The position numbers were made by a program, and so were the translations under genes. Shown piece by piece: positions 1 through 25,041 of a stretch of DNA of 64,000 bases; within the stretch, counting starts at the first letter, position 1; each line of letters starts with the position of its first letter. The stretch is from Escherichia coli (GTDB lineage Bacteria > Pseudomonadota > Gammaproteobacteria > Enterobacterales > Enterobacteriaceae). Location of the stretch: NCBI RefSeq assembly GCF_003790525.1, contig NZ_CP033635.1; one strand, 5' to 3'. A model generated the notes under the pieces. It was not told the DNA's origin. It did no database searches and saw only the letters and a list, made by a program, of their open reading frames with translations.

Positions 1-3000
1 CCGGGACGGTATCGTAAATCACCAGATACTGCCGCCAGGATTCGCCTTCATTTTCCGGCTCGCGGTACACAACGCCTTTCAGGTGATCGACATTCCCCTT
101 GAAGTAATGTTTAAGACCTAGCTGGATCGCCGCCCCAAGAGAAGCCTCCACGACACGGTCATTACTGTAACTGCTTACCGGGAGCAGAATACGCAACGCT
201 TCTGACTCCAGCTGGCGATAGAGATAGAGATAATCTTCGAACTTCGCCTTTTCGGGTTCCGTGCGATATTTGCAGCTCAAATCATGACGTGGTTCATGAT
301 CGCGAGGACGCTGCACCATGCCGCACCCGAGGCAAACTTTAAACCCGGTTCGCTTCTTCGCTTCTCCGGCAATCATCAACTCATTGGCATCATCCGCCAT
401 TTTGCCGAAGTTGATATCCCGCAGGGTGACTTTGCTTAAAAATTCAAAACCAAACGGAACTTCGCCTTCCTCAATCGCGTATGCCGCCGATACATCTTCT
501 TTTTCGAAACTAACCAATAGCTGACGCTGGAAGAAAGCAGGTTCACGGCTGTCGCTCTCGTCGCTGATCTGGCTATCACGTGCGCTGGCGCGGGCATACA
601 CCTGGCGAAGTTTCAGCAGCGTGGTTTTTTGTCCGGCGTCGGCCCACCCCGGTGTGCCACATTTCGGGCAATATTTATGCTGGTCGCCCGTCTGGTCGAT
701 ATTTTCGCTGTAGTTACAGTGGCTACAGATACGCCAGTTCTCCGGCTCAGAGACCTTCAGGTCTATCTGCTCAATTTCAACTTTATGCCCACCGGCATAG
801 AAATTATTCAGCGGAGCCAGCTCAGCCAGCGCCGTTGATGCCGGGCGTTCATATTCGAAAGTGGTGTTTTGATATTCACGCGCTTCCCCGCCTTCTTTAC
901 GCCGCCAGAGCACAGAACGTAACGTAATACCGGCTTCCGGGAAGGCGTAGTTAGGCAGCAGACCTTCATCCGTGAGGAAATTCAGCGTCTGCTTATTGTT
1001 GATTTGATTTACCAGCGCCATCAGCGCCTGCCGTTCTGAAGTTAACTCGCGCATATCGCTGTCAAAGTTTTGATCGCGCGGCGCGTTCTCCAGCTTATCG
1101 ATACTGCGCTTGAGTTTATCGATGCGTGAACGCAGAGATTTGCGATCTTCCACCAGCAGTTTTAACGCTTCTTCGATACGCTGCACCAGCGAACGCTGTC
1201 CAGGCGCACCCTGAAGATAAGACAACAACTGTTGGCGAGTTTCTGCGGCAAGATCGGGGAAGATCGCCGTAAATTGTGCAGCAATCTCCGCATGATGCTG
1301 TTCGATATATCTCAGTAAGTTATACGGAAAACCCGATTTACGCCCGAACTCCAGCTCATCCAGCATCTGTTTGACGTTTTTACAGATAGCGGATTCTGGT
1401 ACACCGGTTTTCACCCAGTTATCCATACAAAAAGCTGCCAGCTGGCGTTCGAGAATAGCCGTTGCATTGAGGAAGACGCCAGGAGCCTGCACCTGGCCCT
1501 GCATCATCTCCAGTGGTTCTTCAAAGAAAAACTGATCGTGCGGGTTCCCTTCTGCCACGGTAATGTTTAACGCGTTACCATCTTTACGACCGGCGCGACC
1601 AATACGCTGCAAGTAGTTGGCCTGAGCAGGTGGGACAGAACAGAGTAAAACGGTGGAAAGATCCCCAACGTCGATACCCATCTCCAGCGTCGGTGTTGCC
1701 GACAACAGGTTGATATTCCACGGTTGGTTGCCGCGGTAGAACGATTTTTCGGTGGCTTCGCGATCTTCACGGCTAAGCAGCCCCGTGTGTTCTGCGCCCT
1801 GCACGCGCGCGATGTCCATGTTCTCCCAACGCCAGGTCGCCGTATTGTCGACTTCCTGGTAACGACCTTCACAACGTAAAGAGAGACAAGGCGCATTACG
1901 CCACTGCCAGCCTTGATCGGCCGGAGCCCGGACAACCTCACGGCAACATGAGCAATTAAGCTGAACGACGTCACGGCTCACCACCAGCGCCGAAGGCACC
2001 AGTCCCCAGGCTTCACGCCCTTTGGTGTCAAAATCTTTTACTACTCCGGCTATTTTCAACGCCGTAAACAGGCGTCGTAACACCGTTTCCGCAACGCTAC
2101 TGATAAACAGATTATTGCCGTTACTCAGCGTGCGATTGATCCAATGCTGATACCAACTGGGGTTAGACTTCGCGCCAATCAGGCGATGGAAACCATTAAT
2201 TTTTTCAAACGACGCATAAGCCGGTTTACGCGTTTTCGGACCGATAGAAGGCATATAGCGCGAGGTACGCTCTTTTTGCGTCATCATAAAGGTCGTGCCA
2301 TCACGGCGATAACTTTCGAACGCCGGATGCATAACGGCCCCGGCCTGGCGTTGATACCAAATAACCCCCAGCGCCAGGTGCGCGACCTGCTCGACGCTCA
2401 CACCGGACATCTCATCACCCAGCTCTTCACAAAGCTGTTGATGCAGGGCGGTAATTGCCGGATTAAAGCGTTCTTTATCCACTCCGGCAACGGCATAACC
2501 GGTGGCTTCCAGCGTACGTCCGATACGCGCGCGCAGGGTAAATTCGCTGTACACCTCCCAGTCGAGGCGCAGGGAAACCAGCTCCGGCAGATCGGAGTTC
2601 TCCGCCAGTTTGCCTTCATTTTTCAGCGTCTGATAATCATTCAGCCACTGCATATTTGGTGCGATGAAGTTCGCTGCAAAATGAGCATCGTCCGGTGAAC
2701 GTTCACGCGTTTGTTGGCAAACACGCGCCGCGAACGCATCCAGCGGTAATGTCTCTTTTTCGCCAAGAACACTGGCGATTTGCCCACGAATCATCAGCGG
2801 CCAGGTTCGGGCAGTAAAAAAGCTGGCACGATGCGCGGCGTCTTGTACCGAGTCAGAAAACGTAATCAGCTTTTTATGTTCGTTGAACTGGCTGCCATAA
2901 AGCTGGTGAATCATCACCGCCGACAGACTGGCAGCCCGTGACCCCAAAATCGAAATCCCCTGTTTGCTGTTGCAGTACGGGCATTCATTAGCAAACTCCA

Positions 3001-4780
3001 GCTCGTCCTTACGCTCTTTGAGCATATCCGGGATCAGTACCTGCAACAGCTCTGTATGACCACAATGTCCACACTGGACGCTGGACTGTCGGTTCAGTTT
3101 CAGGCAGGTAGGGCACAGTTTCTGGTGTGCGCCACTGACCGCTTTTTCGTTGTTATCCGGGAAAGCGAGGACGATGGAGCGCCCTTTTTCAAAGAACTGG
3201 CGATAAATGCCGTCGAGGTCTGTTTCCAGCTGAACGCTTTGCCCATGACGCAGGCTGGCCCAGCCGGTTGCGTGGCAGTCACGGCAGTGGATAACCGGCA
3301 AATAGTGTTCGCGGTCTTCCACCGCCACATCATCGGCAAACACCAGTCGCGGCGTTTTCGCCACGCTGGCGACCAGACGACGCATCTCACGAAGCCACAA
3401 CTGGGAGCGCAGTTGCACAAATGGCAGCACCGGACGCACTTTCTTCGCCTGGAGACGTTTTTGCCGATCGTGTTCCGTTTCCGGTACTTCGAGACGTGCC
3501 TGCGCGATCAGTGCCAGAATGCTTTGCAGCACGCGTCGGGCATGGTCGGCGCTTTCTGCCAGCATAACCTGGAGATTTTCCAGACACTCTCGTTCAGAGA
3601 GGATCCCGCCTTGCAGATCATGGAGTAAGACATGCATCACGCTGTGGCGGCGTAACAGTGACCCCAGCGCAATACGCTTTTCACGCCCGTCGTCGCTCTC
3701 CAGATCGTCCGGGAGTTGCAAGTCGCTGTCGGGGAACCACAAAGGGATTTGCCCGTTAAGATACGCTACCGGGGTAGCGTAACTCTGCGGGTCCAGGGCC
3801 GAAGCGACCTCCGGCCCCGGATACTGACTGTACGCAATGGCATAATCCTGCAAGTACTCCGCTGCCGTGTAGCGATCTTCGCGAATAACGGCGTCATCGG
3901 TAAACGGCTGGTCAAAGATTGTTTTTGCGTAATCGAGCAGTTGCCCCAGTTCGTCGCCGACGGTAGCTGATGTCCCGACGCAGGCGAATCGTTGGTTATC
4001 CACACCTATGTGATGCTTCAGACGTCGCACCAGACAGGCCAGATCCGACCCTTGCGCGCCATCAAACGTATGCAATTCATCCACGACCAGGTAACGCAAT
4101 GAGCCGGGCTGGTTGTAACGCCAGAGCGGCTGATCGCCAGGGCGCATCAGCAGGTAGTCGAGCATTTTGTAGTTGGTCAACAGGATGTCCGGCGGGCTTT
4201 CGCGCAGCGTGTGCTTACAGGTAATGACCTTTTCTGCCGACATTTTCTTGCTGGGTTCGATTTCGCTGTCGCCGACAAACAAGCCGACGGTCACCTTGCC
4301 ATGCAGTTGTGGATCGCTGGCGATGGTTTTGGCGAAACGGCTGGCCTGATCGGTTGCCAGGGCGTTCATCGGGTAGATGATAATTGCTTTAACCCCGGCT
4401 TGTGACGCGCCCGCGCAGTGGTTGAGCAGCGGGAACATAAAACATTCTGTTTTACCGGAGCCGGTACCGGTTGCGACCAGCGTCGGCTGTGGCGCGTCGC
4501 TTCCCAGACGCTGAAATGCCCGGGCCTGATGCGCGTGCGGCGGGAACGGCAGCGTCAGATTAGGGAAAAAATTCAGCGGTAAGTCACTTTTACGAAACGG
4601 CAACTGGGCGGAAAGGTATGGTCCTTTCAGCAGCGTTTCGGGCTGGGCCAGAAATTGCTCCAGCATTGAGACATTATCGTTATTCTCACCGTTAAACAGC
4701 GGGCTGTTTAGCGGGAACGCCGCCCGTAAAAAGGCGGCAACGCTGTCGGCGACCTGCCGACTGACAACGGACGGCAACAT
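1..4780 (-). CDS. DEAD/DEAH-box SF2 helicase with Cys-rich C-terminal region (DUF1998-like), DrmA/DruE-like; 5' complete, 3' end beyond window start
   Basis: Minus-strand start ATG at 4780..4778 overlaps the methyltransferase stop (TGATG). Hand translation gives MLPSVVSRQ...LVATGTGSGKTECF (Walker A). Near the window start the same frame reads ...FKVCLGCGMVQRPRDHEPRHDLSCKY... and ...PENEGESWRQYLVIYDTVP with no stop codons in the stretches checked. The ORF track lists no terminated minus-strand ORF in this frame, consistent with an ORF that runs off the window. Plus-strand ORFs over 318-4405 look like antisense noise. Confidence 0.6.
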   Translation of the reverse strand, partial: MLPSVVSRQVADSVAAFLRAAFPLNSPLFNGENNDNVSMLEQFLAQPETLLKGPYLSAQLPFRKSDLPLNFFPNLTLPFPPHAHQARAFQRLGSDAPQPTLVATGTGSGKTECFMFPLLNHCAGASQAGVKAIIIYPMNALATDQASRFAKTIASDPQLHGKVTVGLFVGDSEIEPSKKMSAEKVITCKHTLRESPPDILLTNYKMLDYLLMRPGDQPLWRYNQPGSLRYLVVDELHTFDGAQGSDLACLVRRLKHHIGVDNQRFACVGTSATVGDELGQLLDYAKTIFDQPFTDDAVIREDRYTAAEYLQDYAIAYSQYPGPEVASALDPQSYATPVAYLNGQIPLWFPDSDLQLPDDLESDDGREKRIALGSLLRRHSVMHVLLHDLQGGILSERECLENLQVMLAESADHARRVLQSILALIAQARLEVPETEHDRQKRLQAKKVRPVLPFVQLRSQLWLREMRRLVASVAKTPRLVFADDVAVEDREHYLPVIHCRDCHATGWASLRHGQSVQLETDLDGIYRQFFEKGRSIVLAFPDNNEKAVSGAHQKLCPTCLKLNRQSSVQCGHCGHTELLQVLIPDMLKERKDELEFANECPYCNSKQGISILGSRAASLSAVMIHQLYGSQFNEHKKLITFSDSVQDAAHRASFFTARTWPLMIRGQIASVLGEKETLPLDAFAARVCQQTRERSPDDAHFAANFIAPNMQWLNDYQTLKNEGKLAENSDLPELVSLRLDWEVYSEFTLRARIGRTLEATGYAVAGVDKERFNPAITALHQQLCEELGDEMSGVSVEQVAHLALGVIWYQRQAGAVMHPAFESYRRDGTTFMMTQKERTSRYMPSIGPKTRKPAYASFEKINGFHRLIGAKSNPSWYQHWINRTLSNGNNLFISSVAETVLRRLFTALKIAGVVKDFDTKGREAWGLVPSALVVSRDVVQLNCSCCREVVRAPADQGWQWRNAPCLSLRCEGRYQEVDNTATWRWENMDIARVQGAEHTGLLSREDREATEKSFYRGNQPWNINLLSATPTLEMGIDVGDLSTVLLCSVPPAQANYLQRIGRAGRKDGNALNITVAEGNPHDQFFFEEPLEMMQGQVQAPGVFLNATAILERQLAAFCMDNWVKTGVPESAICKNVKQMLDELEFGRKSGFPYNLLRYIEQHHAEIAAQFTAIFPDLAAETRQQLLSYLQGAPGQRSLVQRIEEALKLLVEDRKSLRSRIDKLKRSIDKLENAPRDQNFDSDMRELTSERQALMALVNQINNKQTLNFLTDEGLLPNYAFPEAGITLRSVLWRRKEGGEAREYQNTTFEYERPASTALAELAPLNNFYAGGHKVEIEQIDLKVSEPENWRICSHCNYSENIDQTGDQHKYCPKCGTPGWADAGQKTTLLKLRQVYARASARDSQISDESDSREPAFFQRQLLVSFEKEDVSAAYAIEEGEVPFGFEFLSKVTLRDINFGKMADDANELMIAGEAKKRTGFKVCLGCGMVQRPRDHEPRHDLSCKYRTEPEKAKFEDYLYLYRQLESEALRILLPVSSYSNDRVVEASLGAAIQLGLKHYFKGNVDHLKGVVYREPENEGESWRQYLVIYDTVP

Positions 4781-7700
4781 CAGGCGCTCTCCTTATCTTG
4801 TGCAAAGAACGCCCAGGCCACTTTGTAGTCGTCTTCGCGATCCGGCTTGATAAACGGTGCCTGCCAGGTGACGGTACGGCGCTCGCCTTCGTCGCTGCGG
4901 GTATAGTCATCAAAGGTAACGCTGACGGTACCGGTTTGCAGATGTTTGACATCATCCCAGCCGATGGCTTGATCGGTGCAGTCACCGCCGGTCCAGTCCG
5001 GGCTGTCGACGTTAAAGACAAAGCCGTTTTTCAGGTCAGCTTTACGCGCGGTACGAGGCAAGCCAACGCCCACCAGCCCTTTGCTTGGGGTAAAGATAAT
5101 GCGACCGTTTTGATCGTACCAGGTGTCCGCTTCGTACTGGCGCATCACCGGGAACTGAATACGGTAGATGGCGAGTAGTTCTTCGAGGGTTAGCCCCAGC
5201 GCCTGCGCCACCAGCACGTCGATTTCCACCAGCGCCTGACGGCGGCTGTAGTCGGAGCGTAAGGCGCAGTTACGCTGCCATTCTGGGGTCAGATTGGTGA
5301 AGAAATCCTGGGGGAGCTGTGGGAGATCGCGGCTCCAATATTGTATTTTAAATTCTGAGGAATAAATGGAACACCACAATTTTTTATAATGCTCTGTTAT
5401 ACTAACCAAAGCCATCGACCTTGCATGTAAAGAGGCTCTAAACTTCTCATTACTTAATAATGGAAGTTGATTAACTAATGACTGATTCGCATGCCCCATG
5501 CCAGTACACTTGACTCTATAATCTACGACAATGGACAAAGACATCGAAAAGAAATCAAGTAAATCATAGTCATGTTTAAAAATAGTGCTTAGACACGTAT
5601 TAATATGAGAAATACCGGGAGGTATTATAGTTGCGATGAAAGTTCGTTCAGAAGTTGAACCTATCATTTCCCGATTAACAAATCTATAGCCATTAGTCAC
5701 AGGAAAGACATTACCATCCCAAGAAACTGTCGGAATTCGATTTAGAAAATCGGAATACTCGCAATTAGGAATATAATTAACCCTAGGCATATAATTATCA
5801 GGAATAGTCATCAAATCAATGGAGTCATAGTCACTATTTAATTTACATAAAGTCCGTGGCGTTTTGTAATAAGCATTCCCCACAAAGAAATGTGGTCCAG
5901 ATAATATCCATTGTGAAATTCCAGAGGGGAATTCCGTTTTCCTTTTAGTTGTACCATCTCTTTGAGCAAATGTTTCATCAAACATCACTGTAGAATAATA
6001 ATTATTTTTTATTGAAGATAGTTTTTTTGATTTAACATCAAATTTACGTAAAACTTCCAATAATTGTACTGTATGTAAAGCTGGAAGCCTTGCGTGCAGT
6101 GCAGGTGTTGAATTATCATCAAATATCCCCGCAAACAAACGTAACTCATCAATAGTAATTGTTAATACTCTTGATTTATGGGGTGATATATTCCAATTTA
6201 TTTTCAGTTTATCCCCATTGTAAGATTCTTCCTTGATACCAGGAATTTCCCCTTGATTATCATGCAAAATACTTGAATCTATTGTATACACAGAGAACAA
6301 ATTTGACATGTGTGTAAATGAAGGCGATTCTTGCAATGGACCATAAATATTAATACTAAATGTTGTTGCATGATGAACATCGGGAAAAAGCCCTAATTCA
6401 TTTTGAAATTGATAATGGTCACGCAAACGGCAGTAAATTTTGGCACGAAGTTCCCCCGCCTTGCTATCATCATAAACTCCATCAGGGTGCAATAACCCTG
6501 AAACACCATGTTCAGAAATAAGTCGCCATGAGACTGGTAAAAAACATTTATATAGATTTGTTTTTTGCCCTAACAAGCATGAAAAATTTTGCTGACTATT
6601 TAGATAGTTCTGTAATCCAACGGCAGATTCAAACTCACTTCGCCATGCATCTTCTAATCCATAGACTCGTGCAAAAGATTCTTCTCGGAGAGAAGATATA
6701 TTGGCAGCGCTAAGATTGTGCAGTACAAGCTCAGGTTTATAATCTCCCAATATTCCGCGTTCTTCCCATACAACTTTTAGCCACGGCGGGTTTCCGAGCA
6801 TCAGGTCAAAACCGCCGCGCTCGGCAAACAGGTCGCAGAACTCCAGATCCCAGTGGAAGAAACGGTACTGCTTTCTCAGGGCATCGACAATCGCCAGACG
6901 CGGCAAATGACGGAACAACACCTCGGTTTTCAGACGACCTGCGCCGGAAAACAGTGAAGACTCTTCTCGCAGCAGACCTTCTTCGGCAAACAGATCGCCG
7001 GTGGTGTGCTCCGCAACTTCAGTGACTTTTTCCGTGATTACAATCCCGTCGAGCAGGGTTTCAATCTCAAACAACCAGGTGCCGCGATCCGGTAGCTCAT
7101 CGGCTTTGTCGATCGGCCAGAACCACAGCGCGCACCAGTAGTCCATCACCCAACGCAGCTTCTGGTAGGCACTGTTATCTTCAAGACGACCACTGAAGGT
7201 TTCATCTTTACTGCTCAGCGAAGAACGCGTCTGCTCGCTGTTTTCTGCCGGCCACACCGGGTAGCTGTCGGCGGTTTTCAGACGTTCTGCTTTAAGTTGC
7301 TGGCGATAGGTGTTCCACAGAGCTTCCACCTTTTCGCTGATACGCTGCACATCAGCAATCTCATGCCCGGCAAAGCTTTTAATAAACTCTTTGCGCCAGC
7401 TGTCCAGGGCTTTGAAGTCATCCGGATAACGCTGCTTAACGGTTTTATCGCTGTAGTTAGCCATACCGCCGTCGGGCAGCAGGAAGTGAAAAATCTGCGT
7501 CTCTTCACGCGGCGTGTTCATCGCCAGTTCGACCGGCTCGCTGTTAAGCCAGCTCGGATCTTTGGCTTTTTTGTAGGTCAGTTCACTCTTGTTGAACACC
7601 TGACGGCGCGCGCCCACCAGCGAGTTACCGCAGTGCAGCTGGTAACCAAACCACGGTACAAAGGCATCGCCACTGATGGCGTTCAGCCACAGCGACACTT

Positions 7701-9702
7701 CCGCCAGTTCCACCGCCACCGGGTTTAAGTCCACGCCGAAAACGTTGTTGTCGGCAATGTACATTTTCACCCGCTGTAACTCCTGGGTGTAACGATCCTG
7801 CGGAATACGGCGACCTTCCGCCTGCTGCTTGTGGAACAGATACGCTTCCGCCAGCTGGTTGATGGCTTCGTTAAGGAACGCCGCGCTGCCCATCGCCGGT
7901 TCGCACACGGTGAGGTTTAAGATGGCATCAGCTTTAGCGTGCAGATCGGTAATCGGATCAATTTGCTCTTTAAACAGTTCTTTCAGGGCATATTTAACCA
8001 GTGAGCGGGTCAGCACTTCCGGGGTGTAATAAGAGGCAGATTTCTCACGGTCGCGCCCGGCCATACGGTAGATAAAACTGCCTTTGCGGTGAATGCGCAG
8101 ACTGCCGTCTTTCTCGTAGACCTTCTCGTCTTCGTGGTATTTGCCAATCTCATCCTTACTGACGAAGTAACCCGTCTCCAGCTCGTTAAACTCTTCCCCG
8201 GCTTTCTTCACCTCGTAGAGATCTTCGCTGGCGAAGAATCCGCGATAGGAGAGCAGCGCCTCATACACCGCACCCAACTGGTTGATACCCAACTGGCGAT
8301 AAGAAATACGTCCGCGGCGGTTAAAGCGCCCTTTGCCCGGGCGGCTTAACGACATCGCCTGGATAATCTGTTGCAGGGTTTCGTTACGGAATACCACGCG
8401 GTTAAGAATGCGCGTGTTGTTGGCATCAAACAGATGACTTTCCAGACGCGGGACGCTGAACTGATGACTATGGATGGTGATCCGGTCGCCGCTCTCCAGG
8501 TCACTCTGCATTTTCACGCCGCCGTTGTAGCCTTCGCGCACCAGTTTAAACAGCATATTCAGGCTGTCGTGGAAGTAGCGCCCGTTGCGATCTTCTTCGC
8601 TGGTCAGCGGGATCATCTCCAGATCGCGCAACGTTTCCAGGCTGTAACCTTGCAGATAGGTTTTGGCTGTCATTGGCGCATAACCCAGCTCCGGGCGCGC
8701 TTCAATGTAGAACAGGAACAGCAGGCGGTACATGTAACGCAGACATTCGCGGCTCAGTTCATCCGGGTCCACCGCACGGTTACCGGTATAGTTTGCCAGG
8801 CCACGGTCGATCAGATAATGCATCGCTTCGTTGCCCAACAACTCTATGCTTTCGCGCAGGGCATATTTCAGATCTTCCGAAACACCAAACGCATGTTTGT
8901 GCGAATTGTCATCCAGCGAGTCAAGATATGGTGCCCCACTGCCCGGCAGCAGCGAATCTTTATGTAGCAACACTGCCGTCGCTTTCAGCGTATCCGTTTC
9001 ACGACGACTTAAAATCTCTTCAAAATCAAAACGTAGCAGACGGTTTTGCGCCCACTTAGTACGGTCCAACAACAATAGCTGACGGTTACCGAGCAGCAGC
9101 ACAAAACGCGGCGGTTCATTTTGGGTGAAGACCGCCGTAGAGAGCAGATCCTGCCAGCTGCGATATTCACCGTTGGCTTTTTTGCGCAGGCTGTCGCGCT
9201 TATGTTTGTCGGTATCCGCCGGGAATTGCGCGGTCAGTAAGGAGAGCGCCAGCGGATCCAGCGTTCCTTCTTCCTGATCGTGTGCTTCAACAATCCACAG
9301 CCACGGGCTACCGTCAGTGCTGTTGTAACGCGCCAGTACTGGCAGTGGTGTATCGTCATCCAGCATTTGGATCTGCGGCGTAATTTCGTAGCCCAGCGCC
9401 TTTAACAATGGCTGCCAGCGATTACGTTGATCGGCCAGACGCTGCGGGATCTGACGCTGTTTTTCGTGCTCGGCAAGTTTGCGGAAAAACTCAGTCGCCA
9501 GACTGTTAAACTGGTTCCACGGAGCGCGGTATCCCGGCTCTACGTCTTTGCCCTGTTCACGAGCGGCACGCTCCGCTTCACGCGCTGCATTTTCCTGGGC
9601 TATCCAGGGTTCCAGCACATCGCGGATATCACTGGTGAATACCTCACCCAAATAGTGGTTAGAGTAAAATTCGTTTTCGTTATTAATACCGACCAGCGCC
9701 AT
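4780..9702 (-). CDS. drmMI: N6-adenine DNA methyltransferase, PglX/type IIG-like (DrmMI-like)
   Basis: 1640 aa ORF with an AdoMet-binding-like motif (CEPAMGSAAFLNEA), the PglX-type motif GVDLNPVAVELAEVSLWLN and the catalytic motif LGNPPW. Start lies 2 nt after the upstream SNF2 stop, suggesting translational coupling. Confidence 0.7.
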   Translation of the reverse strand: MALVGINNENEFYSNHYLGEVFTSDIRDVLEPWIAQENAAREAERAAREQGKDVEPGYRAPWNQFNSLATEFFRKLAEHEKQRQIPQRLADQRNRWQPLLKALGYEITPQIQMLDDDTPLPVLARYNSTDGSPWLWIVEAHDQEEGTLDPLALSLLTAQFPADTDKHKRDSLRKKANGEYRSWQDLLSTAVFTQNEPPRFVLLLGNRQLLLLDRTKWAQNRLLRFDFEEILSRRETDTLKATAVLLHKDSLLPGSGAPYLDSLDDNSHKHAFGVSEDLKYALRESIELLGNEAMHYLIDRGLANYTGNRAVDPDELSRECLRYMYRLLFLFYIEARPELGYAPMTAKTYLQGYSLETLRDLEMIPLTSEEDRNGRYFHDSLNMLFKLVREGYNGGVKMQSDLESGDRITIHSHQFSVPRLESHLFDANNTRILNRVVFRNETLQQIIQAMSLSRPGKGRFNRRGRISYRQLGINQLGAVYEALLSYRGFFASEDLYEVKKAGEEFNELETGYFVSKDEIGKYHEDEKVYEKDGSLRIHRKGSFIYRMAGRDREKSASYYTPEVLTRSLVKYALKELFKEQIDPITDLHAKADAILNLTVCEPAMGSAAFLNEAINQLAEAYLFHKQQAEGRRIPQDRYTQELQRVKMYIADNNVFGVDLNPVAVELAEVSLWLNAISGDAFVPWFGYQLHCGNSLVGARRQVFNKSELTYKKAKDPSWLNSEPVELAMNTPREETQIFHFLLPDGGMANYSDKTVKQRYPDDFKALDSWRKEFIKSFAGHEIADVQRISEKVEALWNTYRQQLKAERLKTADSYPVWPAENSEQTRSSLSSKDETFSGRLEDNSAYQKLRWVMDYWCALWFWPIDKADELPDRGTWLFEIETLLDGIVITEKVTEVAEHTTGDLFAEEGLLREESSLFSGAGRLKTEVLFRHLPRLAIVDALRKQYRFFHWDLEFCDLFAERGGFDLMLGNPPWLKVVWEERGILGDYKPELVLHNLSAANISSLREESFARVYGLEDAWRSEFESAVGLQNYLNSQQNFSCLLGQKTNLYKCFLPVSWRLISEHGVSGLLHPDGVYDDSKAGELRAKIYCRLRDHYQFQNELGLFPDVHHATTFSINIYGPLQESPSFTHMSNLFSVYTIDSSILHDNQGEIPGIKEESYNGDKLKINWNISPHKSRVLTITIDELRLFAGIFDDNSTPALHARLPALHTVQLLEVLRKFDVKSKKLSSIKNNYYSTVMFDETFAQRDGTTKRKTEFPSGISQWILSGPHFFVGNAYYKTPRTLCKLNSDYDSIDLMTIPDNYMPRVNYIPNCEYSDFLNRIPTVSWDGNVFPVTNGYRFVNREMIGSTSERTFIATIIPPGISHINTCLSTIFKHDYDLLDFFSMSLSIVVDYRVKCTGMGHANQSLVNQLPLLSNEKFRASLHARSMALVSITEHYKKLWCSIYSSEFKIQYWSRDLPQLPQDFFTNLTPEWQRNCALRSDYSRRQALVEIDVLVAQALGLTLEELLAIYRIQFPVMRQYEADTWYDQNGRIIFTPSKGLVGVGLPRTARKADLKNGFVFNVDSPDWTGGDCTDQAIGWDDVKHLQTGTVSVTFDDYTRSDEGERRTVTWQAPFIKPDREDDYKVAWAFFAQDKESA

Positions 9703-9704
9703 GA

Positions 9705-12563
9705 TTAACCCTCCGCTCCGGTGATAACAGCAATTACCTGAATGTAGGGTTCTTTTTCAGTCGTCATGGTGTCCTCAATCCATTCGATATAGCTGTCAAA
9801 ATTGTGTTCGATTTCGCGTTGTCTCTGCTCTTTACGGCTCTGCTTAACTGACAATTGCTGTTTGTTATCGGCAAAATCCAGCTCAAGTTGGCTCAACTGC
9901 CGCCCACGCAAAACGTCCAGCTTTTGCAGATGCTCATTCAGTTGCTGGTTAATGTGCGTTTCAAACGCATTCCGATCATGGATGAATACCTCCCGGGCAT
10001 GAGCAATAGCCGCTTCCAGTAAATCCTGCTGGCGCTGGTGATTACGATCTTTACCGCCGCTGTTAGTCAGCTTGTTACTCAACTGCGGATGACGTTGTAA
10101 AAACTCAGCAAATGGCTGACTGCCGATTAGCGATTCACGGTTAAAGCTCACCACTATCCACGGGTTCACCATCGGATGTGATTTACGGTTCGGGAATAAC
10201 CCGGAAAGAATGAAGTGATCTTCATCGGGTTCAAGCAGGTATGGCAGACGGATAACCGGTGCCTGATGACGACCAAAAGCCGAAGAGATTTTATCGTCCA
10301 GCCACTGCACTACCGGGTTGATTTGCCAGAGATACTGCACATCGGGCCAGGCATGTTGCTCACCGCGAGCGCGTGCAATCGCGTCGGTGATGACGGTTTT
10401 ATCCTGACTTAAATAGAGCTGCCAGTTCTCCGGCGCGATTTCAGGCGGTAGCTGATTGAAGCGGCGGCGTAACTCCTCCGGCGCCACCAGCGACAAGGTA
10501 TTATCAGGCAAGGTTTCATACTGGATAGTTTGACCACTGGCTTTCAGGTAACCCAATGCTCTTTCGCAGTACGCCTGTTCGCTGGCAAACAAGCTGGTGT
10601 CTGTTTCGGTGACCATTGAGGCATCGCTGGAAACCGCACTGCATATTTCGCCAAACAGATCATGTTCGGCGCTTTCCGAGACGTTGCTGTTCAGCAGTTG
10701 ATCAAACAGGCTGGCACCATCATCCTGCATCATGAACTCTGCAACCTGCTCTTCTTCCTCTTCCTGGGTAAATTTGCCGGTAAACTCCGAACTGTCCCCA
10801 ATGTTCTTCTGCGCCTGTTCGTCTTTGTTGATCAACACTTCCAGTACGCGCATATCGCCATTGATCTGCGGTTCGCTGGCCTCGGTAAGCAGATAGCGGA
10901 TTTGAGGCTGATGTTTTTGCCCATAGCGGTCAATACGCCCGTTACGTTGCTGGAATACCATCAACGACCACGGAATATCAAAGTGAATCATTTTGTGGCT
11001 AAGGTGATGCAGGTTGATCCCTTCAGATGCCACATCCGAACAAACCAGAAGACGCAACGGCGACTGCGTTTTACCAAAGGCTTCTACGGTTTCCATCAAC
11101 ACCGTATCGCCCTGATCGCCGCGCAGCGTGGCGATCTGATCATCTTTCAATTTCAGATCCGCTCGCAGTTGCTGTTCGAGGAACTCCAGCGTTTTAATGC
11201 TTTCAGTGAAGATCACCAGGCGATCTTCCGTGTTATTGGCTTTCCAGGCGAGGTCTTTTCGGATGGTGTCGAGCAGCAACTGGTATTTGCTAAACTGGCT
11301 GGCATCAATGTTATTCAGCGCCAACAGCAATGACTCCAGTTCGTTGATCTGGCTCTGGCTATTATGATCTTTACGGCTCTCAAGACGCTTCAGACGATTA
11401 GCCACTACGCTGGCACACGCCATCGGGCTGGAAAATAGCGCTTTTTCGAGGGTTATCTTGAACAGACGACCTTTGTTAGACTGGGCCTGTTCATCGTCAT
11501 CATCACGGAACTGACTCTCAACCAGGCGACGGTATGCTTCTTCTTCGGCACCGGATGCCAGGCGAGTCAGTTTGACAATATTGCGCTCGGGGAACTCGCC
11601 GGACATCTGATCTTTCACGTCTTTTTTGAAGCGACGGACAACCAGATTTTTATCGGCAAAGTCGGCGTATTCATACTCTTTCGGGTTGGCGATCGCCGTC
11701 GGGTCAAGCATGTTCATCAGGCTGGCAAAACTTTCAGCCTTACCATCATGCGGCGTCGCTGAAAGCATAATCAGCGTATCGCTACGCCCGGCGAGCAGTT
11801 TTGCCAGTTTACTGCGTAACGAACTGGTTCCACGTTCTGCGACGTTATGGGCCTCATCAATGACAATAATATCCCACCAGGCATTTTCCAGATGGTGACG
11901 ATATTCAATGTCTTGTTTCAGCGTATCGATGGAGATAATGGTCTTGTCAAAATAGTGAAACGGGTTGTGGTTGGTAGGGATGCGGTTACGCACCTTTTGT
12001 AAACCAGCAGAATCCAGGCGGGTCAATGGGATCGCAAAACGGCTCCAGAACTCCTTCTGGAATTGTGTCAGCATCGATTTAACCGCCAGAACCAGAATAC
12101 GTTTTCCGCGCCCACGACGGATCAGCTCCGAAACCAGAATACCGGCTTCCAGCGTTTTACCCAGACCGACAGCGTCGGCAATGAGTATCCGCTGGCGCGG
12201 CTGTGCCAGAGCCATCCGCGTAGGGTCGAGCTGAAACGGCATGGAATCCATCGCCGCCAGATGACCAAAATGGACTTTACTGTCTGTCGGTACGCGTTGG
12301 CGTAACTGACTTTCGATATACAACTGCGCCGCCTGATAATTGGCGGATTCATCTTCCACCAAATGCGTTTTTGCGGGATCCAGGATCTCTACTTTTTGTT
12401 CCAGTTTGGTCAGAAATAACCCTTCTTTACCGCGCACAAGCTCTGAAATACCATCGCAGGTCAGCAAATACCCACCATCACCACTGTCATCCGCCCGGCG
12501 AATACGCCATTCGGCATCACGAATAACCACCCGCATACCAGGTGCATAATTTTGCTTATTCAT
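9705..12563 (-). CDS. drmD: SNF2-family helicase (DrmD-like)
   Basis: 952 aa ORF with motif I ADAVGLGKT, motif II IIVIDEAHN and the C-terminal helicase motif QRNGRIDRYGQ. First gene of a three-gene minus-strand operon. Confidence 0.65.
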   Translation of the reverse strand: MNKQNYAPGMRVVIRDAEWRIRRADDSGDGGYLLTCDGISELVRGKEGLFLTKLEQKVEILDPAKTHLVEDESANYQAAQLYIESQLRQRVPTDSKVHFGHLAAMDSMPFQLDPTRMALAQPRQRILIADAVGLGKTLEAGILVSELIRRGRGKRILVLAVKSMLTQFQKEFWSRFAIPLTRLDSAGLQKVRNRIPTNHNPFHYFDKTIISIDTLKQDIEYRHHLENAWWDIIVIDEAHNVAERGTSSLRSKLAKLLAGRSDTLIMLSATPHDGKAESFASLMNMLDPTAIANPKEYEYADFADKNLVVRRFKKDVKDQMSGEFPERNIVKLTRLASGAEEEAYRRLVESQFRDDDDEQAQSNKGRLFKITLEKALFSSPMACASVVANRLKRLESRKDHNSQSQINELESLLLALNNIDASQFSKYQLLLDTIRKDLAWKANNTEDRLVIFTESIKTLEFLEQQLRADLKLKDDQIATLRGDQGDTVLMETVEAFGKTQSPLRLLVCSDVASEGINLHHLSHKMIHFDIPWSLMVFQQRNGRIDRYGQKHQPQIRYLLTEASEPQINGDMRVLEVLINKDEQAQKNIGDSSEFTGKFTQEEEEEQVAEFMMQDDGASLFDQLLNSNVSESAEHDLFGEICSAVSSDASMVTETDTSLFASEQAYCERALGYLKASGQTIQYETLPDNTLSLVAPEELRRRFNQLPPEIAPENWQLYLSQDKTVITDAIARARGEQHAWPDVQYLWQINPVVQWLDDKISSAFGRHQAPVIRLPYLLEPDEDHFILSGLFPNRKSHPMVNPWIVVSFNRESLIGSQPFAEFLQRHPQLSNKLTNSGGKDRNHQRQQDLLEAAIAHAREVFIHDRNAFETHINQQLNEHLQKLDVLRGRQLSQLELDFADNKQQLSVKQSRKEQRQREIEHNFDSYIEWIEDTMTTEKEPYIQVIAVITGAEG

Positions 12564-12642
12564 CGGTTTTTCTGTCTATTTGGGGCAGTGGCGGTAACGT
12601 CATCCTGAAAAATGTGGCGCGGCACACTGCGATAAAAAAGAG

Positions 12643-12667
12643 GGCCTTAAAGATATCATGAAGGCCC
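12643..12667 (-). terminator. Candidate intrinsic terminator between the druE-like gene and the SNF2 operon
   Basis: Perfect 7-bp inverted repeat GGGCCTT-N12-AAGGCCC, followed on the minus strand by CTCTTTTTTAT. Confidence 0.4.
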
Positions 12668-12786
12668 CCGGCAAAGTGACAAAATGGGAGGGAATGCGCA
12701 TAATTTGCGCATGATTTTCAAACAAAAATTATTAAAAAGTGAGCTGGGTCAACTCCCCTGGAAGATATCCTCAGGGGAGCAATTAT

Positions 12787-15700
12787 TTATCCAGCGATAA
12801 TATAACTCCTAAGGTCATTACCCGGGGCAACAGCTCGCGCTCGCGTGTTTGCCAGCCGTTCAACTTGCTGCGGTACTCGTAGAGCAAAATCAAAGAAGGT
12901 GTCTTCAATACAGCGCCAGTAGCTAAGCCCCATGTCGAGCAGGACATAATGCTGACTGCCATCGCTGAAGGTGACTGTCAGTTCTCGTCCATGCTCCGTA
13001 CTCTGGTTATCCCCCGTTAACCAGCTAATTGCTCCCAGCCACGCTGGCCCCAGATATCCTTCTTCAAGTAAAGTGGTCACAACCTGCTGACGATCTTCCT
13101 CATTAAGCCACGCGTTATAGAGAGCGTCGTGTTGGCGAGAGTTGTAATCCAATTTTTTGACGCAAACAGTGAGGCTGGCGCGTTCCGCCATTCCCTGTTC
13201 AACCAGCTCAGTTAAGATTTCACCTAACAAACGCGCCGTGAATGGGCTATTAAGATAACGATCGCTGTACTCAACATGCGTTATCTCTTTGTGGCGGGTA
13301 AATGCCTGCTTCCAGCCAGCGTGCTGTTGCGTGACTAACGACCAGAAACGCGAACCAAAACCTTCCAGCGGCCCGTCCAGTTGTTCGCAGAGATTGATGC
13401 GCACCGCCCCGGTGGGTAAGGCGGGCAGTAAATCTTCTGCACTTAAGATCTGACCCAAGAAGGTTTTTCCGGACGTTCCTTTAAGTGTCACTACTGGTGA
13501 AGACGCACTTTGTCCCCATAATTCACCAGGTGCAACGGTAGCGCTGTCGTCTGCGGCCCACTGTTGGCTTTGCCCTTCGCGAGTCACCTGCGCAAGCCAG
13601 CGTCCCTTTCCTTGCATGAGTTGCGCAGTGGCAATGGATTTCACTTGTAAGCGTCCTCCCGGCATCGCCGCCAACGCGGAAAGCTGATGTCTGGAGCTAT
13701 CAGTTAAGTTTGCCAACGGCGTGGCCACCAGCAACTCAACATGCCCACCGGAGGAGGCAAACTGGAGCAACTCTTTAAATAATGGCCATTGGGCAAAATC
13801 CCACTGTTCCTGCGGCCCCGCAAGAACCAGCGAGCAGGAGTCATAAATCTCGCTGTTCAGGCATTGCGCAATACGTAAACTCAGCGGGTTAGTTTCAACC
13901 CGGCTACCATCGCCGAAGTACTGATATTCTGGCGCGAGGTTAAGTCGCTGCAACCGTACATTGGTAAGCAGGGTTAATGCATGGTGACGATCTAATCTGT
14001 TGACATAATGCTGACTGTCGTAGCTGAGCAAGCAGTGGTGACAGAATTTATCGCAACTGCAATCGAGCAATTTTCTGGCGTAATTAAAGACATCAGCCCA
14101 ATGGTCGATCAATTGCACTGCATAACCTGCACCACCCGCATTATTGTCGTAAATGAAGATGGAATATCCGGTATAGCCATTGATATCGCGCGCTTGCTGC
14201 GTCGTCACGCCCAGCTCAGTATTTTCGATACCCAATTTATGCGCTAACCCTTCACGCAAAGCGACCGCAAGGGATCGCGCGGCAACCTCATCACGGATCA
14301 ACAGGCCATTATCATCATTGAGTTGCAGCTCAACCATATCTGTACGACTGCTATACCCCAACCACAGATCTTTATGCACATGACCGTGGCACAATTTATT
14401 GCTCCCCTGACGATCGTTACTGCCCCCTCGCAACAGGTAATGCGTATTTTCCCTCTCTGGGTTCTTAAGATTTTCAGGGGTACGCTGGGGTTGATTTTGA
14501 GATTCTGCCCGACCACATGAGAGGCAAATTGCGTAGCCGTGCCCAAATTCCCCTTCACTGAAGTGGAACAATTCCCCACTATGGCTAAAACGGTAACGTC
14601 CTAGCCCAGCATCGGGTAAAGAAACCCACACCGAAGACGGTACAAGAACACGTGGATCTTTCCAGGGAAGTTGTGCAGGCATGGATACATCATTATGCGC
14701 CTGATAACGGATATCTGTCGCAAAACCAACAGGCTGTAAATAACGCTTCACATCAAGTTGCTGTATATCCGCTTTGCAGTGACTACATTCGACAGGACGG
14801 GTAGTACTGGTTGCCCCCGCACCACATTTACGACAATGCCAGAACCACGGAATATGATGATCGCCTGACAGCTCCTGCCCGCTGGCAAGTACCTTGCCAA
14901 GCATAATGCCCGAGGAACGATATACTTTTCCGCCCAATACCACATCTGCACCTGGAGCATACTCGCGTAATGCTGTAGGCAAATCACGGCTGGGCAATTT
15001 TTCAATACGACGAGAAAAGCTTTCTCCCCCTTCATTAGGGTCAGCCTGAGTGGCTTTTATTGCGCGACGTTTTTCCAGCTCATCTGCCGTCAGATAATTG
15101 AAATTGACGACGCCAACCGGGAAACCATGCCCCGGCAGGAACGCTTCACTAATGAGTTTAGAAAACAGATATGCACCGCGATAATCACGAAGCTGATAAG
15201 CGATGGCTTTACCTGCTGGCGTTTCTTCCCACGCGCTGTTATCCGCCTTCAACGCTTCGATATTTTCCAACAGTATCGCAAGTTGGCTTCTCCAGCGGAT
15301 ATCAACCTGCTGCATCATTGCTTGTGTGCGGGTCAAGAGCTGGGTTGCCGTCAATGACATCAGGACGGTTCCCTGAGTAAGGCGTTTAAGTTTATCCGCC
15401 AGCTGATCGGCCTGGTTATTTAACCAATGGAGAAAACGAAGACACTGGCTCTCATCACCTTCAAAGAACCATTTGCAACTCAGTTTTGTCGCATCAGGAA
15501 CTTCAGCTCGTAAAAACAGACCTAAAACCAGGGCATTAACATGTCGTTGAACAATACTGCTGCTCCCAAAACGAACCCGTGGCGCACTGGCAGTAGTGTT
15601 GAACGCCCAGAGGGGGTCTTTGAATACCTCCATTCCATGCGCCGTGTTTTTACATAACGTAATGGCAGCAGATGCACTCTCTCCACGTCGACCCGCGCGG

Positions 15701-18700
15701 CCTGCACGCTGCAAATAATTTGCCGGAGCTGGAGGAACGTTGTTCATTGCCACCAAACTCATACCACCAATGTCCACCCCCATCTCCATGGTCGTGGAGC
15801 AGTTCAGCACATTAACTTTGCCTGACTTAAATTGTTTTTCATTAAACTGGTTCTGCTCAGGCGTTCTCTGCGCAGAGTGTTCCTCCAGACGATACCAGCT
15901 ATCTTTCAGGGCCAGTCGGTCGCTGCGAGTAGACCATAATCCTTCCTCGCGGGCATGTTGAATCAGCGCATTACTTTCCAGCCACTCCAGACGTTCTTCT
16001 CGGGCGATTTCTCCACCACCAGACAAACGCCAGTGACGTACAGGAAGCTCAGGCATTTCAATCAACACTGCTTTTTCAGGTGCAATTTCTTTGCTACCCG
16101 GCAAATACGGAGAGTATCCCAGTAACGTGACGTCTAACGCACGTCGAGTATAGGGGCAACGCCACACTTGCTTTGGACTGTAAAATTCAGCTTGTTGTTT
16201 AATATCCAGCTGATAACCCGACTCAAACTGACGTAAGCAGGGTCGAATTGCATCCCAGACCTCAATCATTAAGTGGTTAACTAACGATTTCCAGTGAGCC
16301 TGCTCAGGTTGTATTGCCGGAAAGACTGCAATTAATAGCTTAATGACCCGGTTATAATGGCGATCGCGTATTTGTGGCCAAAGTTGATCACGTTTCTGCC
16401 CTTTGTTTTTTTTATCTGGACCCTGGAGCATTTTTACCGGGAAACGAGCCCCCATCCAGCGAGGGTATTGCTCGTTTTCGTAAAAAACGGCACTGTTTTC
16501 ACGTATAAAGAAATCAAGAGTAATCTTCAATAAATTACGCCATTCCGCTAATTGCTTATCGGGATCGGGTAATAATGTCTTCCAGTCCTGCGGGCAGGTT
16601 GTAACTTTATCAATAAATGGATAGTGAATGGCTACCAGACCCAGACTTTCGAGGGTCCAGGCATTTTTAGGGCGGCGACCAAACTCACTGTATAAACAAA
16701 AATCTGCAAACTGTTGTTTAGTAAGATCAAGCCCAGACAATTCTTTAAAACTGCCTCTCATTCTATCGGCAAGGTCCACACTGCCAACCAGCTGTTCAGA
16801 CAGTGTTTGCCATGACATGGTTTTCTTCTGCTGATTGCCAGAGTTAGCCTGGAGTATTTGCATCGCTTCAGCATGATCCGGGCTTAAGGAACTCACCATC
16901 GGCTCGATAATTTTAAGTGCCTGAATGTCCGCCGGGCTAAGCTCTTCATTAGCAACCATCGCTTTTTTCAGCGCGTCAATAGAGTTTTTTAAAGGAAGGA
17001 TAGAAAACTGGGTAATAAAACTCTCTAACAATGCGCAGTGTGCCGGGCTGAGCTTTGCTGATGGCTCATTAATATTGGCCAACTCCTGGTAACAAAGAGC
17101 TCGCAACGTCGCTTTATCGGCATCCTGCTGTAAGCGGGCAGAAATGCGGGCAGTGCCCTGACGTGAATCCGTAAAGGTGAGCAGACGTCGACCATTAAAC
17201 GGTCCTAACTGCTCTTCTCTTGTCTGCGGTAATGGTGAAAACTCCAGCAGAGTAGGAATAATTTCATTTAAAAAAAAGGGCGCGCCAAGTCGAAGCGGAC
17301 GGAATAAAGGATTATTTTTTCGTTGGGTGTCACCACAGCAAACACAAGCAAAGGAATTATTACGTCCCTCACCTCGAGATTCCGGTCTTAACAGGTTTAT
17401 TTCATAGTGCTTTTGCGCTTCACTATCAATTTTCCCCGCCGTCGTTTCTTCCAGAGAAATGATATATTTTTCACCATCGATCGCAATCAGACGATCAAAT
17501 TGAGAGTTATTGTCTAATTCGTCGTTGTCTTCATCTTCAGAATAAACATCTACATCAAGAGCAAATTCATCCACTTCGGCAGCGGCGGGTTGCGCTACCA
17601 ACCAGTTCGTTCCATCACCGCGCACCTCCTCTTTGGCAGACAAATAAGCTGAACCACACCCGGAGCAACGTAAAACTTCAAATACCGGCGCACCACAGTC
17701 ACAATATTGGCGCTGCTCAAACCATACCTGACCAAATGGCCAGTCACTCTGATTTAATTCATGCGCTTTATGTGAGCATTGTTTGTTTGAACATGCCCAT
17801 AGACCCGCCAGTGTTCTGATAAACCCATGCATACGTAATGGCGTAAAAGCCAGTTCACCTTCTCGCGATCTCGCCATTAGGTCGAGGAGTTGCAGTAACT
17901 CACGGTGATTAATATCTGGCCAGGTTCTTCTGGCAACATTGAGCAACTCACTCAAACGTACTGCCTGCCGTCCGGGATGAGTTAACGCCTGACGCAATTG
18001 CTGGGCCACACGGTAATGACAAAGCTGTTGGTAAAGATCCTGAGGGCTCAAAGATTTAAGAGAAGTTAAAGATGTGGGATATTCATGACGAATCAGCGAC
18101 TCCGATACCCGCGGTATTTGTCGATAGCCGCGAACCACTTTGACATCACGTTCTGTAACGCCCGCGAGATCAGCGACAAATTTAGCAAGCTCCTTATTAC
18201 CTTCAGGAGAGTCTTCACCAATAGTGGCAGAGGTCGCGATAATCTGCACAGGTTTATCTGTGCCCGGTCCAACATTGAAAGCCTGCATAACACGACGTAA
18301 AAGCAGCGCTAACTCAGCAGCCTGAGAACCAATATAACTATGGGCTTCATCCAGGACGATATACTTTAACATCCCCTGAGACTTTTCGATGATTGGGGCA
18401 TCTTTACGACGAATCAGCATATATTCCAGCATGGTGGTATTCGTCACCATGATGGAAGGTGGTGCTTCGTAAATGGCTTCCCGACTCAAAGCTTGTTCAG
18501 GTACTTTCAACTGATCTTCCTGAACTTCGTATTTGGTATGCCGGGTTTCGCCATTATATAGCGCGAAGCGTATTTTCCCCTTAAATCCGCGCGTCCATTC
18601 GCGAAGCCGCTCCTGTTGGCTGTTAATTAATGCATTTAACGGATACAAGAAAATAGCTTGTGTCCCTGTTAGTGACTGACGGGTCGATTTTTGCTGACGA

Positions 18701-19110
18701 ATAAGATCTTCCAGAACCGGTACCATAAAGCATTCTGTTTTCCCGGATCCCGTACCGCTGCTCACTAACAAGGATTTTTTGTCTTCCAGAATCGTTCGCC
18801 ACGCCGTAAGTTGATGACGAAATGGCACCGGCGCTTTGCTCAATGCATCAACCAGCGGGCTGGAAATTAGCTTGTCCCGCAAATCCTCCATTGTTTCATC
18901 CGCAGGCATCCAGCCGAACGTGCTTTCGAATACCGGGTCTGCAAGCAGTGACCCCTCCTGACCGGGAGGCTGGAAATATTGTGATTCCAGATAATGAGTC
19001 AACGACTTGCTCCGCAATGCCAACTGACTTACCACCGACCTCACCGCGCGCTGATGAAGCTGATTTAGAAGTGGCGCATAATGCAGTTGCTGAACGTCCA
19101 TCAATGACAT
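12787..19110 (-). CDS. druE: DruE-like large helicase (Druantia type III-like)
   Basis: 2107 aa ORF with Walker A SSGTGSGKTECFM, DEAH-type box VLDEAHSY and a C-terminal Cys-rich region (CLSCG..., CSCDKFCHHC). Overlaps the upstream gene by 10 nt. Confidence 0.6.
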   Translation of the reverse strand: MSLMDVQQLHYAPLLNQLHQRAVRSVVSQLALRSKSLTHYLESQYFQPPGQEGSLLADPVFESTFGWMPADETMEDLRDKLISSPLVDALSKAPVPFRHQLTAWRTILEDKKSLLVSSGTGSGKTECFMVPVLEDLIRQQKSTRQSLTGTQAIFLYPLNALINSQQERLREWTRGFKGKIRFALYNGETRHTKYEVQEDQLKVPEQALSREAIYEAPPSIMVTNTTMLEYMLIRRKDAPIIEKSQGMLKYIVLDEAHSYIGSQAAELALLLRRVMQAFNVGPGTDKPVQIIATSATIGEDSPEGNKELAKFVADLAGVTERDVKVVRGYRQIPRVSESLIRHEYPTSLTSLKSLSPQDLYQQLCHYRVAQQLRQALTHPGRQAVRLSELLNVARRTWPDINHRELLQLLDLMARSREGELAFTPLRMHGFIRTLAGLWACSNKQCSHKAHELNQSDWPFGQVWFEQRQYCDCGAPVFEVLRCSGCGSAYLSAKEEVRGDGTNWLVAQPAAAEVDEFALDVDVYSEDEDNDELDNNSQFDRLIAIDGEKYIISLEETTAGKIDSEAQKHYEINLLRPESRGEGRNNSFACVCCGDTQRKNNPLFRPLRLGAPFFLNEIIPTLLEFSPLPQTREEQLGPFNGRRLLTFTDSRQGTARISARLQQDADKATLRALCYQELANINEPSAKLSPAHCALLESFITQFSILPLKNSIDALKKAMVANEELSPADIQALKIIEPMVSSLSPDHAEAMQILQANSGNQQKKTMSWQTLSEQLVGSVDLADRMRGSFKELSGLDLTKQQFADFCLYSEFGRRPKNAWTLESLGLVAIHYPFIDKVTTCPQDWKTLLPDPDKQLAEWRNLLKITLDFFIRENSAVFYENEQYPRWMGARFPVKMLQGPDKKNKGQKRDQLWPQIRDRHYNRVIKLLIAVFPAIQPEQAHWKSLVNHLMIEVWDAIRPCLRQFESGYQLDIKQQAEFYSPKQVWRCPYTRRALDVTLLGYSPYLPGSKEIAPEKAVLIEMPELPVRHWRLSGGGEIAREERLEWLESNALIQHAREEGLWSTRSDRLALKDSWYRLEEHSAQRTPEQNQFNEKQFKSGKVNVLNCSTTMEMGVDIGGMSLVAMNNVPPAPANYLQRAGRAGRRGESASAAITLCKNTAHGMEVFKDPLWAFNTTASAPRVRFGSSSIVQRHVNALVLGLFLRAEVPDATKLSCKWFFEGDESQCLRFLHWLNNQADQLADKLKRLTQGTVLMSLTATQLLTRTQAMMQQVDIRWRSQLAILLENIEALKADNSAWEETPAGKAIAYQLRDYRGAYLFSKLISEAFLPGHGFPVGVVNFNYLTADELEKRRAIKATQADPNEGGESFSRRIEKLPSRDLPTALREYAPGADVVLGGKVYRSSGIMLGKVLASGQELSGDHHIPWFWHCRKCGAGATSTTRPVECSHCKADIQQLDVKRYLQPVGFATDIRYQAHNDVSMPAQLPWKDPRVLVPSSVWVSLPDAGLGRYRFSHSGELFHFSEGEFGHGYAICLSCGRAESQNQPQRTPENLKNPERENTHYLLRGGSNDRQGSNKLCHGHVHKDLWLGYSSRTDMVELQLNDDNGLLIRDEVAARSLAVALREGLAHKLGIENTELGVTTQQARDINGYTGYSIFIYDNNAGGAGYAVQLIDHWADVFNYARKLLDCSCDKFCHHCLLSYDSQHYVNRLDRHHALTLLTNVRLQRLNLAPEYQYFGDGSRVETNPLSLRIAQCLNSEIYDSCSLVLAGPQEQWDFAQWPLFKELLQFASSGGHVELLVATPLANLTDSSRHQLSALAAMPGGRLQVKSIATAQLMQGKGRWLAQVTREGQSQQWAADDSATVAPGELWGQSASSPVVTLKGTSGKTFLGQILSAEDLLPALPTGAVRINLCEQLDGPLEGFGSRFWSLVTQQHAGWKQAFTRHKEITHVEYSDRYLNSPFTARLLGEILTELVEQGMAERASLTVCVKKLDYNSRQHDALYNAWLNEEDRQQVVTTLLEEGYLGPAWLGAISWLTGDNQSTEHGRELTVTFSDGSQHYVLLDMGLSYWRCIEDTFFDFALRVPQQVERLANTRARAVAPGNDLRSYIIAG

Positions 19111-24324: not shown

Positions 24325-24330
24325 TCGATC

Positions 24331-25038: not shown

Positions 25039-25041
25039 GAG

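Follow-up and report, generated by a model that had tools for sequence, protein, structure and literature searches.

The first 12,563 nucleotides of the window analyzed here, a 64,000-nucleotide stretch of Escherichia coli contig NZ_CP033635.1 (assembly GCF_003790525.1), carry minus-strand genes for an SNF2 helicase, a PglX-like adenine methyltransferase and a long helicase that runs off the left edge, raising the question of which anti-phage system they belong to. A first-pass annotation of the sequence had taken them for the first three genes of a class 1 DISARM operon, possibly with a non-canonical fusion of DrmA and DrmB. The evidence assembled below indicates instead, with a probability of about 0.9, that the locus is the ARMADA type II anti-phage system armA-armB-armC-armD, of which armA, armB and three quarters of armC, counted from its start, fall inside the window. 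This system is already known: two preprints from 2025 gave it its name and validated it, and its architecture does not constitute a novel non-canonical form.

Identification of the locus as ARMADA type II

ARMADA type II consists of ArmA (BrxHII/RapA-like), ArmB (PglX-like), ArmC (YprA-like, with a C-terminal Vsr nuclease) and ArmD (RelE plus GajB-like) (Bell et al. 2025, PMC12458937; Li et al. 2025, 10.1101/2025.09.22.677730). The contig was extended leftward through the record of E. coli SMS-3-5 (locus L001, in which a coordinate equals the window coordinate plus 15000), and the gene order there is SNF2 helicase, PglX-like methyltransferase, YprA-like helicase and GajB-like UvrD helicase, with which the profile matches agree. 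Window positions 1-12600 are 100% identical to SMS-3-5 and to at least 12 further complete genomes, and the region is present at 95% identity or more in 527 of 5426 complete E. coli genomes. SMS-3-5 is named by Li et al. (10.1101/2025.09.22.677730) as carrying three co-localized systems. The ArmA protein (RefSeq WP_001041505.1 in the SMS-3-5 record) is also the ArmA representative in Table S2 of Bell et al. (PMC12458937), and all eight residues mutated in that study occur at identical numbering (ArmA K136 and D236, ArmB G605 and N971, ArmC K110 and D234, ArmD K266 and D454). Compared with O157:H7 Sakai (ECs_5261-5264), ArmA (ECs_5261) is 100% identical, ArmB 83.9%, ArmC 99.5% and ArmD 99.6%. 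The assignment follows from the agreement of gene content and order, the ArmA accession, the eight catalytic residues and the Sakai identities; in addition, the upstream neighbors, Druantia III and Zorya II, reproduce the published island layout. The value of this result lies in the correct filing of the locus under ARMADA II and not DISARM, since tools dated to 2023 (PADLOC-DB v2.0.0, for example) continue to divide it among DrmD, type IIG and DruE-like matches. The features of the locus are as follows.

9705..12563, minus strand: armA, a 952-residue SNF2/RapA/BrxHII-like helicase with Walker A K136 and DEAH D236 (open reading frame call and profiles)
4780..9702, minus strand: armB, a 1640-residue PglX/DrmMI/type IIG-like gamma-class N6-adenine DNA methyltransferase with the S-adenosylmethionine (SAM) motif at G605 and NPPW at N971
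5203..6750, minus strand: hypervariable segment of armB (residues ~985-1500), a putative target-recognition region (allele alignment)
1..4780, minus strand: armC, codons 1-1593 of 2113, a YprA/MrfA-family SF2 helicase, the remainder lying left of the window
3947-4531: armC, RecA1/DEAD
2972-3286: armC, CxxC zinc cluster
1583-1804: armC, Helicase_C
1-136: armC, start of MZB/DUF1998
L001 13439-15000, left of the window: remainder of armC, including the Vsr-like nuclease
Left of the window, after armC: armD, 704 residues, annotated as a UvrD-helicase-domain protein
12564..12786, minus strand: druE-armA intergenic region with a terminator-like hairpin and promoter-like hexamers (consensus scan only)

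The tight coupling of the three genes and every motif quoted in the first-pass annotation were confirmed by the open reading frames and motif positions. A 2-nt gap separates armA from armB (TAA TC ATG), armB and armC overlap by 1 nt (TGATG), and on the extended contig armC and armD overlap by 4 nt (ATGA). From position 4780 the armC frame runs through 1593 codons to the window edge with zero stops, so the helicase frame in 1-4780 is uninterrupted, as had been supposed. The annotation had also proposed looking to the left for DUF1998 and phospholipase D (PLD) genes; the extension holds neither a separate drmB nor a drmC, DUF1998 occurs only within the helicase, no PLD domain was found in ArmC, ArmD or the next gene beyond, and the fourth gene encodes a RelE-UvrD helicase. 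Left of armD in the SMS-3-5 record lie unrelated small genes on the opposite strand, followed by a truncated nanS and then by nanM, nanC and the fim operon. The first gene past armD (L001 10164-10814, plus strand), some 5 kb beyond the left edge of the window, encodes a 216-residue hypothetical protein with a weak match to the uracil-DNA-glycosylase superfamily (E 0.004).

Domain content of the Arm proteins

The lengths of the reading frames and the profile scores are far beyond chance, and none of the four Arm proteins passes any NCBIfam model. ArmA carries DEAH at residue 236 and QRNGRIDRYGQ at residue 539; it scores 333 bits on the DrmD and 201 bits on the BrxHII profiles of PADLOC, and on NCBIfam models 133 bits for RapA and 349.7 bits for DISARM_DrmD, under the cut-off of 610. 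Judged by these profiles, ArmA is homologous to DrmD yet falls outside the DISARM_DrmD family threshold. ArmB shows DLNPVAVELAEVSLWL at residue 658 and NPPW at residue 971, with the SAM motif at G605. Its best PADLOC match, nearly full length, is REase_MTase_IIG (934 bits), followed by DrmMI (190 bits in three partial stretches), with just ~22-28 bits on PglX profiles and weak Pfam matches to MmeI_Mtase and Eco57I; profile searches including Pfam detected no nuclease domain.

ArmC contains GTGSGKTECF at residue 105, CLGCG at residue 1483 and nine CxxC pairs, and Pfam places DEAD at 84-278, Helicase_C at 993-1066 and MZB/PF09369 (DUF1998) at ~1549-1638 (E 8.5e-13), the last being halved by the window edge. 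The DUF1998-like region that had been suspected in the long helicase is thus real, and the idea of a fused DrmA-DrmB protein holds insofar as the module lies inside the helicase, a reading shared by the discoverers of the system; what does not hold is a new non-canonical DISARM architecture, this being ARMADA type II already. On DruE profiles ArmC reaches 348 bits, versus 50 bits on DrmA profiles, the latter falling on the generic Helicase_C region. The helicase core had been said to closely resemble that of the DruE-like neighbor; the two are homologous, but not close, with 34% identity over 211 residues of RecA1 (E 4e-30) and 23% over a further 719 residues. Membership of ArmC in Druantia was considered and rejected: the DruE match is partial (348 bits, versus 2180 for DruE next door), and the operon pairs it with SNF2 and UvrD helicases and a methyltransferase, with no type-specific Druantia set.

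Predicted structures were used for the Vsr domain of ArmC and the RelE domain of ArmD because Pfam detects neither. In the predicted structure and among homologues, the C-terminus of ArmC holds a Vsr-like PD-(D/E)xK nuclease domain with invariant acidic and His residues, and the Vsr-like site includes D1748, D1768, H1773 and D1802; an exhaustive search of representatives with the C-terminal fragment gave 933 matches, against 5 in a word-indexed search. In the PDB, neither the ArmC C-terminus nor ArmB had a match by sequence. ArmD is predicted to join an N-terminal RelE fold, with R62, R68, H88 and Y92 in the RelE-like site, to a UvrD/GajB-like helicase, whose core scores 123.5 bits on GajB profiles. 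The order of methyltransferase, 2107-residue MZB helicase and UvrD helicase recurs in Pseudomonas putida.

The extreme C-terminal module of ArmC (residues ~2020-2100; L001 13442-13700) is homologous to that of ZorE from the nearby Zorya system (residues 279-335; window 25876-26046), with 40% identity over 57 residues (E 2e-8), and ArmC also matches the ZorE profiles of PADLOC and NCBIfam. In the predicted model the module is a small degenerate Vsr-like domain, and a ZorE-like tail sought in DruE was absent. Both proteins could use this module for docking or DNA binding, which would be relevant to the synergy reported for the island.

A hypervariable segment in ArmB

Li et al. (10.1101/2025.09.22.677730) reported that the diversity of the island lies mostly in armB. 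Alignment of eight E. coli ArmB alleles revealed at least 99% identity outside residues ~985-1500 and 50-82% inside, the most variable blocks being ~1101-1198 and ~1345-1444. The eight alleles are all mutually different, and the allele of the window occurs in 17 of the 526 genomes carrying the locus; O157:H7, LF4-1 and PSJ-36 are among the strains that have other alleles. The variable segment lies directly downstream of the NPPW catalytic motif, and gamma-class methyltransferases such as MmeI and PglX place their target-recognition domain downstream of the catalytic motif. Because the variation is confined to the stretch in which such enzymes carry the recognition domain, we lean slightly toward reading these ~500 residues as a swappable, possibly bipartite, target-recognition module, through which ARMADA II islands that are ~99% identical elsewhere would carry many methylation and restriction specificities, the window's being a rare one. 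A text search of Bell et al. and Li et al. found the armB variation neither localized nor tied to specificity. If this reading is true, ARMADA would be a specificity-shuffling system resembling restriction-modification, with a direct handle on its recognition step; the localized hypervariability offers a cheap, testable route to the recognition motif, and may explain why phage range could differ among strains with near-identical islands.

Alternative explanations

A canonical class 1 DISARM operon (drmD, drmMI, drmA, drmB, drmC), with drmB and drmC just left of the window, would account for the DrmD match of ArmA, the DrmMI match of ArmB and the DUF1998 module within the helicase, and the first-pass annotation was right that a DrmD-like SNF2 helicase and, perhaps, a DrmMI-like methyltransferase are shared with that system. 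However, the contig extension adds one gene only, the RelE-UvrD helicase, which refutes this explanation. A separate DrmB, a PLD-containing DrmC and an equivalog-level DrmD are all missing: DUF1998 is fused to ArmC, the PLD domain was found nowhere searched (ArmC, ArmD and the next gene), and ArmA reaches only 349.7 bits where DISARM_DrmD demands 610. ArmC, moreover, prefers DruE over DrmA profiles (348 versus 50 bits) and groups with Druantia and not with DISARM in the phylogeny of Bell et al. (PMC12458937). Canonical DISARM is therefore extremely improbable.

ArmB alone might instead act as a complete type IIG restriction-modification enzyme, cutting as well as methylating, with the three helicases as accessories, as its nearly full-length REase_MTase_IIG match (934 bits) and the weak MmeI_Mtase and Eco57I matches would suggest. 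The PADLOC label, however, derives from a database classification of large methyltransferases and not from assays, no nuclease domain was detected in ArmB whereas a conserved nuclease fold sits in ArmC, and deletion of armA, armC or armD abolishes or lowers defense (Bell et al., PMC12458937; Li et al., 10.1101/2025.09.22.677730), which leaves this explanation very unlikely. It is also unlikely, if less strikingly so, that druHE and armABCD form one co-directional six-gene system in which ARMADA is an extension module of Druantia III. The genes do run in the same direction across a gap of 223 bp, the ArmC and DruE helicases are homologous, synergy has been measured, and the two systems co-occur in hundreds of E. 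coli genomes; yet plasmid-borne armABCD protects on its own (Bell et al., PMC12458937), partial defense is retained after each single-system deletion (Bell et al., PMC12458937; Li et al., 10.1101/2025.09.22.677730), and Li et al. (10.1101/2025.09.22.677730) count 17 E. coli strains in which ARMADA II occurs alone. The druE-armA gap itself contains, by consensus scan, a minus-strand hairpin with a T-run (12755-12741) and promoter-like sites (12682-12655 and 12578-12549), and these putative terminator and promoter sites fit the use by ARMADA of its own promoters on a plasmid.

Function and proposed mechanism of ARMADA

According to Bell et al. (PMC12458937) and Li et al. (10.1101/2025.09.22.677730), armABCD alone protects E. 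coli against many phages without killing the cell, that is, without abortive infection; defense depends on each of the four genes, on the ATPase (Walker) motifs of the three helicases (ArmA, ArmC and ArmD) and, in ArmB, on the NPPW methyltransferase motif, and ARMADA synergizes with the adjacent Druantia III. This protection was measured on loci with 100% (ArmA), 99.5% (ArmC) and 99.6% (ArmD) identity to the present one and with a different ArmB allele (83.9%). A 2026 review places ARMADA under "unknown mechanisms".

In the mechanism proposed here, ArmB would methylate adenine in a strain-specific motif read by its variable post-catalytic region, thereby marking self DNA. Together with the SNF2 translocase ArmA, it would detect unmethylated motifs on incoming DNA, comparable to proposals for PglX and BrxHII in BREX and for DISARM. 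ArmC, a putative single-strand DNA translocase of the YprA/MrfA type that has zinc modules and an OB-CON-DUF1998 canopy, may then load onto phage DNA and cut it through the C-terminal Vsr-like PD-(D/E)xK nuclease, while ArmD, whose UvrD/GajB-like helicase bears a RelE-fold head, might help in unwinding or sensing. The RelE-fold head does not fit neatly into such a DNA-centered mechanism.

Genomic neighborhood of the locus

A complete Druantia type III system (12787-22460, minus strand) lies immediately upstream of armA, with DruE at 12787-19110 (2180 bits) and DruH at 19101-22460 (PADLOC, 2541 bits). Divergent from druH, a Zorya type II system (zorA2, zorB2 and zorE; 22615-26145, plus strand) completes the published Zorya-Druantia-ARMADA island. 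Small defense-type genes fill positions 26325-29732 between Zorya and a Wadjet system, including an HNH/type IV-like fragment (26972-27613), a 309-residue HNH protein (27693-28622) that the SMS-3-5 record calls a phosphorothioated-DNA-binding restriction endonuclease, and a protein matching the PADLOC candidate PDC-S11 (28734-29732, 375 bits). Next to these genes, at 26325-26852, lies a 529-bp fragment with 94.5% identity to nanM. It is the counterpart of the intact nanM left of ArmD, so that the two enclose the Zorya-Druantia-ARMADA block.

The Wadjet type III system (29859-39054, minus strand) comprises JetA (37588-39054), JetB (36689-37585), JetC (32601-36686) and JetD (29859-30914). An insertion sequence of ~1.3 kb at 31299-32615, with a 402-residue transposase frame at 31334-32542, ends jetC early, at 1361 of 1478 residues, and is absent from SMS-3-5; because it cuts jetC short, Wadjet is probably inactive in the strain of the window. 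In a BLAST comparison, the window is identical to SMS-3-5 only over 1-31299 and 32615-41647, being interrupted by the insertion sequence in jetC and followed by a different element at 41648-61984, and none of the complete E. coli genomes fully covers window positions 30500-54000.

At the junction of the ARMADA/Wadjet island with a P4-like element, a 226-residue integrase fragment (40595-41275, minus strand; profile positions 59-271) looks like a remnant of the recombinase responsible for bringing in the now-immobilized island, comparable to what Bell et al. (PMC12458937) describe for leuX islands. The P4-like satellite prophage (~41650-53063) is integrated at the tRNA-Leu(CAA) gene leuX (52979-53063) and carries a P4-family primase (42180-44513), C4 antisense and isrK RNAs (45964-46240), Psu (48423-48995; Pfam E 4.7e-88) and an integrase (51562-52827); no direct repeat of the leuX 3' end was found as its boundary at up to 3 mismatches. 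Between psu and int, which in P4-like satellites is a recognized hotspot of defense cargo, lies a gene for a 710-residue protein (49369-51501, 35% GC) with only a weak match to a Sll1717-family P-loop ATPase and no PADLOC or PDB match, which may be an undescribed or recently described defense gene.

Comparison with known systems

Class 1 DISARM resembles ARMADA in its SNF2 helicase, its large adenine methyltransferase and its YprA-family helicase accompanied by a DUF1998 module, and the two likely follow a common logic in which methylation marks self DNA and helicases drive the attack on foreign DNA. However, DUF1998 is a separate protein (DrmB) in DISARM and fused to the helicase in ARMADA, which has a Vsr-like nuclease fused to the helicase instead of the PLD protein DrmC and, in addition, a RelE-UvrD helicase; the ARMADA helicase clade is closer to Druantia than to DISARM. 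DruE of Druantia III resembles ArmC as a YprA-family helicase of ~2100 residues with zinc modules and a fused DUF1998, but it ends in PLD-like domains and has DruH as its partner, whereas ArmC ends in Vsr-like domains and is accompanied by a methyltransferase and by SNF2 and UvrD helicases, with 23-34% identity between the two.

With BREX, ARMADA shares the PglX/MmeI-like motif layout of ArmB, the need of the methyltransferase catalytic motif for defense, a variable region after the catalytic domain, and the match of the BrxHII profile to ArmA (201 bits), but it lacks BrxA, BrxB, BrxC, BrxL and PglZ, and PglX profiles give only ~22-28 bits. The helicase core of ArmD is like GajB of Gabija (123.5 bits), although no GajA accompanies it in ARMADA and the N-terminus of ArmD forms a RelE-fold domain. 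Finally, the ARMADA II systems of E. coli NCTC 12900, ATCC 8739 and EDL933 (PMC12458937; 10.1101/2025.09.22.677730) have the same four genes, order, domain architecture and Druantia III and Zorya II neighborhood as the present locus. Relative to O157:H7 ARMADA II, the 83.9% identity of the window's ArmB reflects differences that all fall within residues ~985-1500, and its recognition specificity may thus differ from those of the tested systems.
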